Shown: piece by piece, positions 1 through 6,313 of the stretch
Layout: every line of letters starts with the position of its first letter
Position numbering within the stretch: position 1 is the stretch's first letter
Origin: a virus
Lineage: Duplodnaviria > Heunggongvirae > Uroviricota > Caudoviricetes
Direction: 5' to 3' (one strand)
Virus record (IMG/VR): IMGVR_UViG_2597490224_000003
Length of the DNA stretch: 6,313 nucleotides
Notes under the pieces: generated by a model
What the model was told of the DNA's origin: nothing
Databases searched by the model: none
The model's input: only the letters and a program-made list of their open reading frames with translations
Position numbers and translations under genes: made by a program

Positions 1-264
1 TCTTATATAGCAGAAGACGGTATCGAAAAACGTTATCTTCCAGATGGCATGCTGGTTCTGGGGAATACTGCTGCAGATGGGATCCGTTGTTACGGTGCCA
101 TTCAGGATGCTCAGGCGTTGTCCGAAGGTGTGGTGGCCTCTTCCCGTTATCCGAAACACTGGCTGACGGTAGGGGATCCCGCCCGTGAATTTACCATGAC
201 GCAGTCCGCGCCGCTGATGGTGTTGCCGGACCCGGATGAGTTTGTGGTGGTACAGGTGAAATAA
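1..264 (+). CDS. E: Major capsid protein, C-terminal fragment (lambda gpE-like); 5' end lies upstream of the window
   Basis: Frame 1 is open from nt 1 with no in-frame stop until TAA at 262-264; the listed ORF 49..264 is only the part after the first Met. Position immediately upstream of FI/FII/Z matches lambda gene order. Sequence-level resemblance to lambda gpE C-terminus is from memory and unverified. Confidence 0.75.
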   Translation, partial: SYIAEDGIEKRYLPDGMLVLGNTAADGIRCYGAIQDAQALSEGVVASSRYPKHWLTVGDPAREFTMTQSAPLMVLPDPDEFVVVQVK

Positions 265-272
265 TCCGTGAG

Positions 273-302
273 CGGGGGCGAAATGCCCCCGTGTCTTTTT
301 TC
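273..302 (+). terminator. Intrinsic-terminator-like hairpin plus T-run just downstream of the capsid gene stop
   Basis: Read directly: CGGGGGC (273-279), loop GAAAT (280-284), GCCCCCG (285-291), a perfect 7-bp GC-rich stem, followed by TGTCTTTTTTC (292-302). Function not verified; could equally be an mRNA-stability or attenuating element. Confidence 0.4.
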
Positions 303-315
303 ACAGGGGGCTGAT

Positions 316-690
316 ATGGCAACGAAAGAGCAAAATCTGAAACGGCTTGATGAACTGGCCCTGATTCTGGGGCGTGAGCCGGATATATCCGGGAGTGCCG
401 CAGAGATAGCGCAGCGGGTGGCAGAATGGGAAGAGGAAATGCAGTCATCCGGCGATGATGTACAGGTTATGAATATGGATATCCGGGAGCGGGAAACCGC
501 GGCTCATGATGTTCGTGAGGAAACATCCGGCGCGTTAACGCGCATCAGAGTTCTGACCTGCCTCCATCTCTGTGGCGTTGATGGTGAAACGGGGGAATCC
601 GTTGAGCTTGCGGATGTTGGTCGGGTGATTCTGATTATGTCCTCAGATGCAAAAACACACGTTGATGGTGGAATGGCTGTTTATGCGTGA
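316..690 (+). CDS. Head assembly / DNA-packaging accessory protein, gpFI-like (124 aa)
   Basis: ATG at 316 preceded by purine-rich CAGGGGG; the ORF-track start at 268 lies inside the terminator hairpin and is unlikely. Sits between capsid gene and FII as in lambda; size similar to lambda FI (132 aa). Stop TGA 688-690 overlaps the FII start (ATGCGTGA). Sequence is diverged from what I recall of lambda FI, so the call rests mainly on synteny. Confidence 0.6.
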   Translation: MATKEQNLKRLDELALILGREPDISGSAAEIAQRVAEWEEEMQSSGDDVQVMNMDIRERETAAHDVREETSGALTRIRVLTCLHLCGVDGETGESVELADVGRVILIMSSDAKTHVDGGMAVYA

Positions 691-1036
691 TTTTCAGAAT
701 GCCTTTGATGCCGCCCTTGCCGGGGTGGACAGTACGATTGTTGAAGTGATGGGCATCAGTGCGCAGTTCACCTCCGGTGCACAGCGTGGCGGCGAGGTTC
801 ATGGCGTTTTTGACGATCCGGAGTCGCTGGGTTTTGCCAGTAGTGGGATCCGTATTGAAGGAAGTAACCCGTCATTATTTGTGCTTACGGATACGGTTTG
901 TGCTGTACGGCGTGGTGACACGCTGACCATTAACGGCGAGATGTTCTGGGTGGACCGTGTTTCTCCGGATGACGGAGGGAGTTGTTATCTCTGGCTCAAC
1001 CGGGGGCAACCACCTGCCGCCAGCCGTCGCCGCTGA
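683..1036 (+). CDS. FII: Head-tail joining protein gpFII (117 aa)
   Basis: Product from the ATG at 683 (MRDFQNAFDAAL...GVFDDPE...GDTLTI...FWVDRVSPDDGGSC...) closely resembles lambda gpFII as I recall it, including the conserved C-terminal ...WVDRVSPDDGGSC.LWL.RG.PPA..RRR; same length as lambda FII. The ORF-track start at 647 is upstream of the homologous N-terminus and overlaps FI. Confidence 0.85.
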   Translation: MRDFQNAFDAALAGVDSTIVEVMGISAQFTSGAQRGGEVHGVFDDPESLGFASSGIRIEGSNPSLFVLTDTVCAVRRGDTLTINGEMFWVDRVSPDDGGSCYLWLNRGQPPAASRRR

Positions 1037-1047
1037 AAGGGGGATGT

Positions 1048-1626
1048 ATGGCCATAAAAGGTCTTGAGCAGGCCGTTGAAAACCTCAGCCGTATCAGCAA
1101 AACGGCAGTGCCTGGTGCCGCCGCAATGGCCATTAACCGCGTTGCTTCATCCGCGATATCGCAGTCGGCGTCACTGGTTGCCCGTGAGACAAAGGTACGC
1201 CGGAAACTGGTAAAGGAAAGGGCCAGGCTGAAAAGGGCCACGGTCAAAAATCCGCAGGCCAGAATCAAAGTTAACCGGGGGGATTTGCCCGTAATCAGGC
1301 TGGGTAACGCGCGGGTTGTCCTGTCCCGACGCAGGCGTCGTAAAAAGGGGCAGCGTTCATCCCTGAAAGGTGGCGGCAGCGTGCTTGTGGTGGGAAACCG
1401 TCGTATTCCCGGCGCGTTTATTCAGCAACTGAAAAATGGCCGGTGGCATGTCATGCAGCGTGTGGCCGGGAAAAACCGTTACCCCATTGATGTGGTGAAA
1501 ATCCCGATGGCGGTGCCGCTGACCACGGCGTTTAAACAGAATATTGAGCGGATACGGCGTGAGCGTCTTCCGAAAGAGCTGGGCTATGCGCTGCAGCATC
1601 AACTGAGAATGGTAATAAAGCGATGA
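1048..1626 (+). CDS. Z: Tail completion protein gpZ (192 aa)
   Basis: ATG at 1048 preceded by AAAGGGGGA; product MAIKGLEQAVENLSRISKTAVPGAAAMAINRVASSAISQSA... matches lambda gpZ in sequence and length as I recall it. The ORF-track start at 982 is an in-frame upstream extension. Confidence 0.9.
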   Translation: MAIKGLEQAVENLSRISKTAVPGAAAMAINRVASSAISQSASLVARETKVRRKLVKERARLKRATVKNPQARIKVNRGDLPVIRLGNARVVLSRRRRRKKGQRSSLKGGGSVLVVGNRRIPGAFIQQLKNGRWHVMQRVAGKNRYPIDVVKIPMAVPLTTAFKQNIERIRRERLPKELGYALQHQLRMVIKR

Positions 1627-2018
1627 AACATACTGAACTCCGTGCAGCCGTACTGGATGCACTGGAGAAGCATGACACCGGGGCGACGCTTTTTGATGGT
1701 CGCCCTGCTGTTTTTGATGAGGAAGATTTTCCGGCAATTGCCGTTTATCTCACCGGCGCTGAATACACGGGCGAAGAGCTGGACAGCGATACCTGGCAGG
1801 CGGAGCTGCATATTGAAGTTTTCCTGCCTGCTCAGGTGCCGGATTCAGAGCTGGATTCGTGGATGGAGTCCCGGATTTATCCGGTGATGAGCGATATCCC
1901 GGCACTGTCAGATTTGATCACCAGTATGGTGGCCAGTGGCTATGACTACCGGCGCGACGATGATGCGGGCCTGTGGAGTTCAGCCGATCTGACTTATGTC
2001 ATTACCTATGAAATGTGA
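1623..2018 (+). CDS. U: Tail terminator protein gpU (131 aa)
   Basis: ATGA start/stop overlap with Z (U ATG 1623-1625, Z TGA 1624-1626). Product [54 protein letters not shown]... matches lambda gpU; length identical to lambda. Confidence 0.9.
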
Positions 2019-2025
2019 GGACGAT

Positions 2026-2766
2026 ATGCCAACACCAAATCCTCTGGCACCGGTGAAAGGGGCCGGGACCACACTGTGGGTTTATAACGGGAGCGGCGAC
2101 CCTTATGCAAACCCGCTTTCAGACAATGACTGGTCGCGTCTGGCAAAAATTAAAGACCTGACGCCCGGCGAACTGACCGCTGAGTCCTATGACGACAGTT
2201 ATCTCGATGATGAAGATGCGGACTGGACCGCGACCGGGCAGGGGCAGAAATCCGCCGGAGATACCAGCTTCACGCTGGCGTGGATGCCCGGAGAGCAGGG
2301 GCAGCAGGCGCTGCTGGCGTGGTTTAATGAAGGTGATACCCGTGCCTATAAAATCCGCTTCCCGAACGGCACGGTCGATGTGTTCCGCGGCTGGGTCAGC
2401 AGTATCGGTAAGGCGGTGACGGCGAAGGAAGTGATCACCCGTACGGTGAAGGTCACCAATGTGGGCCGTCCGTCAATGGCAGAAGATCGCAGTACGGTGA
2501 CGGCGGCAACCGGTATGACCGTGACGCCTGCCAGCTCCTCGGTGGTGAAAGGGCAGAGCACCACGCTGACCGTGGCCTTCCAGCCGGAGGGCGCAACTGA
2601 CAAGAGCTTCCGTGCGGTGTCAGCGGATAAAACAAAAGCCACCGTGTCGGTCAGTGGTATGACCATCACCGAGAACGGCGTTGCTGCAGGCAAGGTCAAC
2701 ATTCCGGTTGTATCCGGTAATGGTGAACTTGCTGCGGTTGCAGAAATCACTGTCACCGACAGTTAA
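2026..2766 (+). CDS. V: Major tail tube protein gpV (246 aa) with C-terminal Ig-like domain
   Basis: ATG at 2026 preceded by GAGGACGAT; product [33 protein letters not shown]...[20 protein letters not shown]... matches lambda gpV; length 246 aa as in lambda. The C-terminal ~90 aa ([32 protein letters not shown]...EITVTDS) is the Ig-like decoration domain. The ORF-track start at 1996 overlaps U and is not used. Confidence 0.92.
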
Positions 2767-2781
2767 TCCGGAGAGTCAGCG

Positions 2782-3204
2782 ATGTTCCTGAAAACCGAAT
2801 CATTTGAACATAACGGCGTGACCGTCACGCTTTCTGAACTGTCAGCCCTGCAGCGTATTGAGCATCTCGCCCTGATGAAACAGCAGGCAGAACAGGCGGA
2901 GTCAGACAGCAACCGGCAGGTTACTGTGGAAGACGCCATCAGAACCGGTGCTTTTGTGGTGGCGATGTCCCTGTGGCATAACCATCCGCAGAAGACAAAG
3001 CAGCCTTCCATGAATGAAGCCGTTAAACAGATTGAGCAGGAAGTGCTTACCACCTGGCCCGCGGAGGCAATTTCTCATGCTGAAAACGTGGTGTACCGGC
3101 TGTCCGGTATGTATGGGTTTGTGGTGAATGATGCCCCTGACCAGGCAGAGGACTCCGGGCCTGCAGAGCCTGTTTCTGCGGGAAAGTGTTCGACGGTGAG
3201 CTGA
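2782..3204 (+). CDS. G: Tail assembly chaperone gpG (140 aa, zero-frame product)
   Basis: ATG at 2782 preceded by GGAGAG; product MFLKTESFEHNGVTVTLSELSALQRIEHLALMKQQAEQAESD... matches lambda gpG; slippery heptamer near the 3' end; stop TGA 3202-3204. Confidence 0.9.
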   Translation: MFLKTESFEHNGVTVTLSELSALQRIEHLALMKQQAEQAESDSNRQVTVEDAIRTGAFVVAMSLWHNHPQKTKQPSMNEAVKQIEQEVLTTWPAEAISHAENVVYRLSGMYGFVVNDAPDQAEDSGPAEPVSAGKCSTVS

Positions 3205-3620
3205 GTTTTGCCCTGAAACTGGCGCGAGAGATGGGGCGACCTGACTGGCGCGCCATGCTTGCCGGGATGTCATCCACGGAGTATGCCGACTGGCACCGCT
3301 TTTACAGTACCCATTATTTTCATGATGTTCTGCTGGATATGCACTTTTCCGGGCTGACGTACACTGTGCTCAGCCTGTTTTTCAGCGATCCGGATATGCA
3401 TCCGCTGGATTTCAGTTTGCTGAACCGGCGTGAGGATGACGAAGAGCCTGAAGATGATGTGCTGATGCAGAAAGCGGCAGGGCTTACCGGAGGCGTCCGC
3501 TTTGGCCCGGACGGGAATGAAGTTATCCCCGCTTCCCCGGATATGGCGGGCATGACGGAGGATGACGTAATGCTGATGACAGTATCAGAAGGGATCGCAG
3601 GAGGAGTCCGGTATGGCTGA
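2782..3620 (+). CDS. T: Tail assembly chaperone gpG-T fusion made by -1 programmed ribosomal frameshift at 3180-3186, continuing in the -1 frame to TGA 3618-3620
   Basis: The -1 frame downstream of the slippery site is open to 3620 (ORF-track 3186..3620, ...SFALKLAREMGRPDWRAMLAGMSSTEYADWHRFY...). The G/G-T arrangement is the established lambda paradigm. The exact junction codon is approximate. Confidence 0.85.
3180..3186 (+). promoter_or_regulatory. -1 programmed ribosomal frameshift slippery heptamer G GGA AAG
   Basis: GGGAAAG read directly; in the G frame the codons are GCG|GGA|AAG (3178-3186), matching the X XXY YYZ pattern. Same heptamer as the lambda G/T site. Confidence 0.85.
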
Positions 3621-6239
3621 ACCGGTAGGCGATCTGGTCGTTGATTTAAGTCTGGATGCGGCCAGATTTGACGAGCAGATGGCCAGAGTCAGGCGTCATT
3701 TTTCCGGAACGGAAAGTGATGCGAAAAAAACAGCGGCAGTCGTTNNNNNNNNNNCAGGCGTCATTTTTCCGGTACGGAAAGTGATGCGAAAAAAACAGCG
3801 GCAGTCGTTGAACAGTCGCTGAGCCGACAGGCGCTGGCTGCACAGAAAGCGGGGATTTCCGTCGGGCAGTATAAAGCCGCCATGCGTATGCTGCCTGCAC
3901 AGTTCACCGACGTGGCCACGCAGCTTGCAGGCGGGCAAAGCCCGTGGCTGATCCTGCTGCAACAGGGTGGTCAGGTTAAGGACTCCTTCGGCGGGATGAT
4001 CCCCATGTTCCGGGGGCTTGCCGGTGCGATCACCCTGCCGATGGTCGGGGCCACCTCGCTGGCGGTGGCGACCGGTGCGCTGGCGTATGCCTGGTATCAG
4101 GGTAACTCAACCCTGTCCGATTTCAACAAAACGCTGGTCCTTTCCGGCAATCAGTCGGGTCTGACGGCAGATCGTATGCTGGTCCTGTCCAGAGCCGGGC
4201 AGGCGGCAGGGCTGACGTTTAACCAGACCAGCGAGTCACTCAGCGCACTGGTTAAGGCGGGAGTAAGCGGTGAGGCTCAGATTGCATCCATCAGCCAGAG
4301 TGTGGCGCGTTTCTCCTCTGCATCCGGCGTGGAGGTGGACAAGGTCGCTGAAGCCTTCGGGAAGCTGACCACTGACCCGACGTCGGGGCTGACGGCGATG
4401 GCGCGCCAGTTCCATAACGTAACGGCGGAGCAGATTGCGTATGTTGCTCAGTTGCAGCGTTCCGGCGATGAATCCGGGGCATTGCAGGCGGCGAACGAGG
4501 CCGCAACGAAAGGGTTTGATGACCAGACCCGACGCCTGAAAGAGAACATGGGCACGCTGGAAACCTGGGCAGACAGGACAGCACGGGCATTCAAATCCAT
4601 GTGGGATGCGGTGCTGGATATTGGTCGTCCTGATACCGCTCAGGAGATGCTGATTAAGGCAGAGGCTGCGTTTAAGAAAGCGGACGACATCTGGAATCTG
4701 CGCAAGGATGATTATTTTGTTAACGATGAAGCGCGGGCGCGTTACTGGGATGATCGTGAAAAGGCCCGTCTTGCGCTTGAAGCCGCCCGAAAGAAGGCTG
4801 AACAGCAGAGTCAACAGGACAAAAATGCGCAGCAGCAGAGCGATACCGAAGCATCACGGCTGAAATATACCGAAGAGGCGCAGAAGGCTTACGAACGGCT
4901 GCAGACACCGCTGGAGAAATATACCGCCCGTCAGGAAGAACTGAACAAGGCACTGAAAGACGGGAAAATCCTGCAGGCAGATTACAACACGCTGATGGCG
5001 GCGGCGAAAAAGGATTATGAAGCGACGCTGAAAAAGCCGAAACAGTCCGGCGTGAAGGTGTCTGCGGGCGATCGTCAGGAAGACAGTGCTCATGCTGCCC
5101 TGCTGACGCTTCAGGCTGAACTCCGGACGCTGGAGAAGCATGCCGGAGCAAATGAGAAAATCAGCCAGCAGCGCCGGGATTTGTGGAAGGCGGAGAGTCA
5201 GTTCGCGGTACTGGAGGAGGCGGCGCAACGTCGCCAGCTGTCTGCACAGGAGAAATCCCTGCTGGCGCATAAAGATGAGACGCTGGAGTACAAACGCCAG
5301 CTGGCTGCACTTGGCGACAAGGTTACGTATCAGGAGCGCCTGAACGCGCTGGCGCAGCAGGCGGATAAATTCGCACAGCAGCAACGGGCAAAACGGGCCG
5401 CTATTGATGCGAAAAGCCGGGGGCTGACTGACCGGCAGGCAGAACGGGAAGCCACGGAACAGCGCCTGAAGGAACAGTATGGCGATAATCCTCTGGCGCT
5501 GAATAACGTCATGTCAGAGCAGAAAAAGACCAGGGCGGCTGAAGACCTGCTTCGCGGGAACTGGATGGCAGGCCTGAAGTCCGGCTGGAGTGAGTGGGAA
5601 GAGAGTGCCACGGACAGTATGTCGCAGGTTAAAAGTGCTGCCACGCAGACCTTTGATGGTATTGCGCAGAATATGGCGGCGATGCTGACCGGCAGTGAAC
5701 AGAACTGGCGCAGCTTCACCCGTTCCGTGCTGTCCATGATGACAGAAATTCTGCTTAAGCAGGCAATGGTGGGGATTGTCGGGAGTATCGGCAGCGCTAT
5801 TGGCGGGGCTGTTGGTGGCGGCGCATCCGCGTCAGGCGGTACAGCCATTCAGGCCGCTGCGGCGAAACTCCATTTTGCAACCGGAGGATTTACGGGAACC
5901 GGCGGCAAATATGAGCCAGCGGGGATTGTTCACCGTGGTGAATTTGTCTTCACGAAGGAGGCAACCAGCCGGATTGGCGTGGGAAATCTCTACCGGCTGA
6001 TGCGCGGCTATGCCACCGGCGGTTATGTCGGTGGCACCGGAAGTCCGGCGCAAATGCGGCGTTCAGAGGGTATCAGGTTTGAGCAGAACAACAACGTGGT
6101 GATTCAGAACGACGGTACGAATGGTCTGCCAGGTCCACAGATGATGAAGGCGGTGTATGACATGGCCCGCAAGGGTGCCCGTGATGAAATCCAGGCACAG
6201 ATGCGCGATGGTGGTCTGTTCTCCGGAGGTGGACGATGA
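3613..6239 (+). CDS. H: Tail tape measure protein gpH; reading frame artificially broken by an N-run plus duplicated flank (3745-3809); intact length would be 853 aa
   Basis: ATG at 3613 overlaps the T stop (ATGGCTGA). N-terminal MAEPVGDLVVDLSLDAARFDEQMARVRRHFSGTESDAKKTAAVV matches lambda gpH. After the gap the same protein continues in another frame (RRHFSGTESDAKKTAAVVEQSLSRQALAAQKAGISVGQYKAAMRMLPAQFTDVATQ...) through the 785-aa ORF to TGA 6237-6239. Removing the 65 nt at 3745-3809 gives 2562 nt = 853 codons plus stop, the lambda H length. Coiled-coil-like A/Q/E/K/R-rich middle and Gly-rich hydrophobic C-terminal segment are typical of tape measure proteins. Confidence 0.9.
3690..3809 (+). 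repeat. 55-nt direct duplication flanking the N-gap (copy 1 3690-3744, copy 2 3755-3809; 54/55 identical); most likely unmerged overlapping contig ends
   Basis: Copy 1 CAGGCGTCATTTTTCCGGAACGGAAAGTGATGCGAAAAAAACAGCGGCAGTCGTT versus copy 2 CAGGCGTCATTTTTCCGGTACGGAAAGTGATGCGAAAAAAACAGCGGCAGTCGTT; single difference A (3708) versus T (3773). Both copies encode the same peptide RRHFSGTESDAKKTAAVV. Confidence 0.85.
3745..3754. other. Assembly gap (10 N) inside the tape measure gene
   Basis: Ten consecutive N characters read directly in the sequence. Confidence 0.98.
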
Positions 6240-6313
6240 AAACCTTCCGCTGGAAAGTGAAACCCGGGATGGATGTGACATCGGCTCCTTCCGTCAGGGA
6301 GGTGCGCTTTGGT
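6236..6313 (+). CDS. M: Minor tail protein gpM, N-terminal fragment (continues beyond window)
   Basis: ATGA overlap with the H stop (M ATG 6236-6238, H TGA 6237-6239). Translation MKTFRWKVKPGMDVTSAPSVREVRFG matches the lambda gpM N-terminus as I recall it; frame is open to the window end. Confidence 0.8.
   Translation, partial: MKTFRWKVKPGMDVTSAPSVREVRFG

Follow-up and report, generated by a model that had tools for sequence, protein, structure and literature searches.

The 65 nt by which the tape measure gene H appears to be interrupted in this virus record are most probably an artefact of assembly or scaffolding and not a biological feature (probability approximately 0.93). The stretch of DNA that was analysed, referred to here as the window, comprises 6,313 nt, and H lies in it in two apparent pieces on either side of a short run of Ns. 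Judged by its similarity to known sequences, H is almost certainly an ordinary, intact and already catalogued orthologue of lambda gpH, carried by a lambda-like prophage.

The run of 10 Ns at 3745-3754 is the only one within the window. It is adjoined directly on each side by one copy of a 55-nt repeat in direct orientation (3690-3744 and 3755-3809, with a start-to-start distance of 65 nt), and this was the only direct-repeat family detected by a repeat search of positions 3400-4100. In 6313 nt, approximately 2.5e-24 repeats of 55 nt with no more than one mismatch would be expected by chance. According to the earlier note, the Ns were flanked by the same 55-nt sequence on both sides. The coordinates given for the copies were exact and the copies do abut the Ns, but the claimed identity was incomplete, as the copies agree at only 54 of the 55 bases. 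The mismatch was located at repeat position 19, where A is found at 3708 and T at 3773. It is synonymous, GGA and GGT both encoding Gly32 of H. The features of the region are as follows.

3613-3744, plus strand: 5' part of H, comprising codons 1-44 and read in frame with the ATG at 3613
3690-3744, plus strand: repeat copy 1, the final 55 nt left of the gap and putative end of the left contig; bears the private A at 3708
3708, plus strand: single mismatch between the copies, A here and T at 3773 (GGA/GGT, Gly32 of H)
3745-3754, no strand: run of 10 Ns, probable scaffold gap placeholder; its flanks overlap by 55 nt in CP051711 (locus L001), CP070124 and CP147567
3755-3809, plus strand: repeat copy 2, the opening 55 nt right of the gap and putative start of the right contig; bears T
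3755-6239, plus strand: remainder of H, which re-reads from codon 27 and ends with the TGA at 6237-6239; offset from the 5' part by +65 nt, which shifts its frame by +2
3613-3822, plus strand: apparently spurious 69-codon ORF, formed by read-through of the Ns into the out-of-frame copy 2
3882-6239, plus strand: apparently spurious 785-aa ORF, H cut back to its first internal ATG

As 65 extra characters (10 N and 55 nt) follow codon 44 of H, the frame is shifted by +2, and the gene is consequently divided into ORFs of 69 and 785 codons. Both ORFs had been reported in the earlier note as lying in different frames, and both were recovered from the deposited sequence, the first at 3613..3822 (69 aa) and the second at 3882..6239 (785 aa). 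In translation, the second frame of H was found to be open from the gap onward and to repeat RRHFSGTESDAKKTAAVV, the residues that close the first frame. It had further been proposed that the deletion of 3745-3809 restores one ORF of 853 codons, and this was borne out when the collapse was run. After removal of the Ns and either copy (65 nt), a single 853-aa ORF extends from 3613 to the TGA at 6237-6239, and its length equals that of lambda gpH.

A programmed ribosomal frameshift in H was also considered. The split H is similar to the lambda G/G-T -1 frameshift in that one product is likewise spread over two frames. However, the break in H consists of a 65-character insertion with Ns, no slippery site accounts for it, and relatives encode H in a single frame; the explanation was therefore rejected. 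As a separate observation, the heptamer GGGAAAG of the lambda G/G-T programmed -1 frameshift is conserved in the window, with G at 2782-3204 and the T frame open at 3186-3620. The heptamer occurs only once in the window, at 3180-3186 at the end of G, and the window contains no real frameshift other than that of G/G-T.

The identity of H was examined using the collapsed sequence. Its product was identical to WP_000840267.1, the annotated tape measure protein of E. coli FDAARGOS_1292 (853 aa), and agreed with lambda gpH (NP_040595, 853 aa) at 825 of 853 residues (97%) without gaps. The view that the phage has an intact tape measure protein is supported by both comparisons. Residues 1-158, which span the junction, were identical to those of lambda gpH. 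Moreover, the collapsed H was recognised by PF06791 TMP_2 with 234.6 bits (cut-off 30.2), by PF09718 Tape_meas_lam_C with 76.2 bits (cut-off 23) and by TIGR01541 with 416.6 bits (cut-off 104.75). The genes G (PF06894) and T (PF06223) are found immediately upstream of H, and the gene order capsid, FI, FII-like, Z, U, V, G, T, H and M is common to lambda and two annotated complete E. coli genomes. Thus, the collapsed ORF resembles lambda gpH both in its length of 853 aa and in lying between G and T on one side and M on the other. It differs from lambda gpH by substitutions that are clustered in the C-terminal region, at about residues 786-840, and these differences are ordinary allelic or mosaic variation.

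Two side observations were made on this variation. H residues 786-840 account for most of the amino-acid differences from lambda gpH, and all 11 mismatches of the sequence right of the gap to E. coli SCU-123 fall within 5402-5868. The clustering of differences at about 5400-5870 of the window and at about residues 786-840 of H suggests mosaic or recombinant segments in the gene.

For comparison with complete genomes, separate queries of 5,426 complete E. coli genomes were made with the pieces left (1-3744) and right (3755-6313) of the gap. The two pieces matched one prophage in the same strains, with an overlap of exactly 55 nt between the matched regions. In CP070124, the left piece was found at 3778756-3782499 and the right piece at 3776252-3778810, while the corresponding positions in CP147567 were 2140903-2144646 and 2144592-2147150. 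The same 55-nt overlap was obtained by direct mapping to CP051711 (left piece 1112-4855, right piece 4801-7359 of locus L001). As the flank matches overlap by 55 nt, the true length of the gap is -55 nt and no sequence is missing. The collapsed junction (656 nt) was contiguous and 100% identical in 12 complete E. coli genomes. When copy 2 was kept, the collapsed window agreed with FDAARGOS_1292 at 6247 of 6248 bases. The right piece (3755-6313) showed 100% identity to 13 complete genomes among the matches listed, and, against the same prophage in the same genomes, the left piece had 2 mismatches and the right piece 0. Judged by these matches, the host prophage is lambda-like and belongs to a B2-type E. 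coli, with UTI89, NU14, Nissle 1917 and ATCC 25922 among the best matches.

A side observation concerns the left piece. In four complete genomes (matches H73-H76), it was matched in two joined pieces with a span of 3,783 nt, compared with 3,744 nt in the window, which suggests that their prophages differ in length by roughly 39 nt at some point in the head-tail genes.

The duplication was then sought in other sequences using a junction pattern in which the end of copy 1 is followed, after 0-30 nt of spacer, by the start of copy 2. As a positive control, the pattern recovered the window itself, with the Ns matched. No match to the junction pattern was found in IMG/VR, in 185,579 species-representative genomes (one per species) or in 241 million metagenome records. 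In addition, 171 related loci were fetched, 141 of which contained the 55-mer when up to 6 substitutions were allowed. Exactly one copy of the 55-mer was present in each of the 141 loci, and neither a second copy nor an insert at the H junction was detected in any of them.

The base that distinguishes the two copies was also compared. The position equivalent to 3708 was occupied by T in 141 of 141 related loci, and a 30-mer with the T version had matches in at least 120 viral contigs. The 30-mer that bears A at 3708 had no match in IMG/VR or in the metagenome collection, and none of the 3,500 complete E. coli records with a match to the 90-mer 3655-3744 matched it at 99% or more. The copy right of the gap thus has the universal base T, whereas the terminal copy of the left piece has a base found nowhere else among the sequences examined. 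The A at 3708 is probably an error or a minor variant near the end of the left contig.

A second private base was observed in the left piece. At 2672, in codon 216 of gene V, the window has A where all relatives have T, which changes GTG (Val) to GAG (Glu) at Val216 of the major tail protein V. The A at 2672 was found in none of 3,500 complete E. coli records and none of 38 related loci, and had no match in IMG/VR or in the metagenome collection. Both private changes (3708 and 2672), each T>A within a CCG(G)T context, lie in the left piece, whereas the right piece has none; the left piece thus looks slightly less accurate than the right piece. The A at 2672 may be either a true SNP of the strain or an error introduced by sequencing or polishing.

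The main alternative to an artefact is a genuine, slightly diverged tandem duplication of approximately 65 nt or more after codon 44 of H, with the Ns standing for approximately 10 unresolved nt. If this were true, the tape measure gene would be frameshifted, and a very recent inactivating mutation would have occurred in an otherwise pristine lambda-like prophage. The gene could alternatively be the inactive tape measure gene of a decaying prophage, with Ns at a repeat that the assembler did not resolve. The difference of one base between the copies is what slightly diverged real duplicates could show. However, the variant base of copy 1 is unique in all the data and that of copy 2 is universal, which argues against a pair of duplicates. 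Moreover, the Ns abut both copies exactly, although a real 65-nt duplication would put known sequence there, and copies that agree at 54 of 55 bases share no common 55-mer able to confuse a graph with k=55. The absence of two copies from all 141 related loci and of the junction from the three public collections also speaks against a duplication. Outside the 65 nt, only one base differs between the window and the prophage of a complete genome, which is unlike a decaying gene. On this evidence, a tandem duplication was considered very unlikely.

The artefact probably arose from the joining of two contigs. The earlier note had attributed the gap to a scaffolder that joined contigs with overlapping but unmerged ends, and this agreed both with the 55-nt overlap of the flanks in complete genomes and with the finding that no relative examined is duplicated. 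In the proposed sequence of events, two contigs of one lambda-like E. coli prophage would have overlapped by 55 nt at their ends, with the left contig ending at 3744 and the right contig starting at 3755. A scaffolder or a contig-ordering step, for example a reference-based one, would then have set the contigs adjacent with a minimal placeholder of 10 Ns, and the overlap would have stayed unmerged; such a step would yield precisely the observed arrangement. This may be explained by the single difference between the ends, since A at 3708 and T at 3773 leave no exact 55-mer common to both.

The length of the overlap may correspond to the k-mer size of a de Bruijn graph. In de Bruijn-graph assemblers, contig ends repeat the k-mer of the graph vertex that they share, and the largest k in the short-read default of SPAdes is 55. 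SPAdes and Velvet probably write a minimal gap of 10 Ns for contigs at a small or negative estimated distance, and NCBI counts runs of at least 10 Ns as gaps. The overlap of SPAdes contig ends has been described as a by-product of assembly (PMC5481147), and in a phage genome announcement a 55-bp end overlap was trimmed from a SPAdes contig (PMC8483715). No publication stating that 10 Ns are inserted by SPAdes where an overlap is unresolved was found in a literature search, as the matches used '10 Ns' in other senses; the support obtained was general and concerned end overlaps of length k.

The window is similar to unmerged contig ends of the SPAdes type in that the same sequence runs up to the Ns from both sides, 55 is a commonly used SPAdes k, and the collapse restores colinearity with complete genomes. 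Unlike unmerged contig ends of length k, the overlap in the window is not exact. An overlap of exactly length k should be perfect and here it is 54 of 55; thus, the picture of a shared k-mer vertex needs an extra step. The mismatch may have come from an error in a low-coverage tip, from post-assembly polishing at the contig end or from the extension of an end by a gap closer. Among 120 loci, no common polymorphism was found at 3689 or 3810, where a branch point for k=55 would lie, and the common SNPs nearest to the 55-mer were at 3648 and 3818/3819. Neither the mismatch nor the site of the break alters the conclusion that the 65 characters do not belong to the phage genome.

It was also considered whether the gap hides an insert in H, in which case the 55-nt repeat would be a target duplication; candidates were an IS element, a morons-type insertion and an intron or homing endonuclease. 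Prophage genes do get interrupted by mobile elements, and a run of Ns in a scaffold can represent sequence of any length. However, the left sequence extends 55 nt beyond the start of the right sequence, and flanks that overlap in this way leave no room for an insert. A target-site duplication of 55 nt is also far above those of known IS families, which are typically 2-14 bp, and the insertion of an intron or homing endonuclease gene leaves no duplicate of exon sequence. Furthermore, all relatives examined were continuous at the junction. A hidden insert was accordingly regarded as extremely unlikely.

Similarly, the scaffold could be chimeric, with left and right contigs from two lambdoid prophages of one genome (A and T paralogues) that were wrongly joined. 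Two copies could be indicated by the A/T difference, and larger parts of the region do match a median of 2 places per complete E. coli genome. Nevertheless, the final 90 nt of the left piece and the 180-nt segments flanking the junction were each single-copy in the closest genomes among the matches listed. In the same genomes, the left and right pieces fit one prophage with 2 and 0 mismatches, respectively, and the A variant was present in no sequenced prophage examined. A chimera is thus hardly credible, and it would in any case leave the 65-nt insert an artefact. A related possibility, namely that the contigs broke at the edge of a repeat between co-resident lambdoid prophages, was rejected for the closest relatives, in which segments 3430-3609, 3655-3744 and 3810-3989 are single-copy. 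Single-copy status was judged in SCU-123, FDAARGOS_1292 and DSM 30083, whichever appeared among the matches listed for each segment. The extra places found with longer queries lie elsewhere than these junction segments.

With the 65 nt taken as an assembly artefact, the gap matters for data hygiene only and adds no new biology. If the record is annotated as deposited, H would appear as a pseudogene or as two genes, with the risk that the prophage is classed as defective. The length of the tape measure protein also serves to predict tail length. Gaps of 10 Ns with duplicated flanks of length k should therefore be collapsed before gene calling.

A further observation was made among the related loci. 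Lambda H with 92-100% identity (mostly 97-100%) was found on short contigs, often at roughly 1x coverage (L124-L132, L134-L135, L139 and L144-L169). The assemblies with these contigs are labelled Neobacillus, Oceanobacillus, Kitasatospora, Shewanella, Chromatium, Bradyrhizobium, Pseudoxanthomonas, Enterococcus and others. The lambda H on those contigs looks like contamination of public draft genomes with lambda DNA and not like real prophages.
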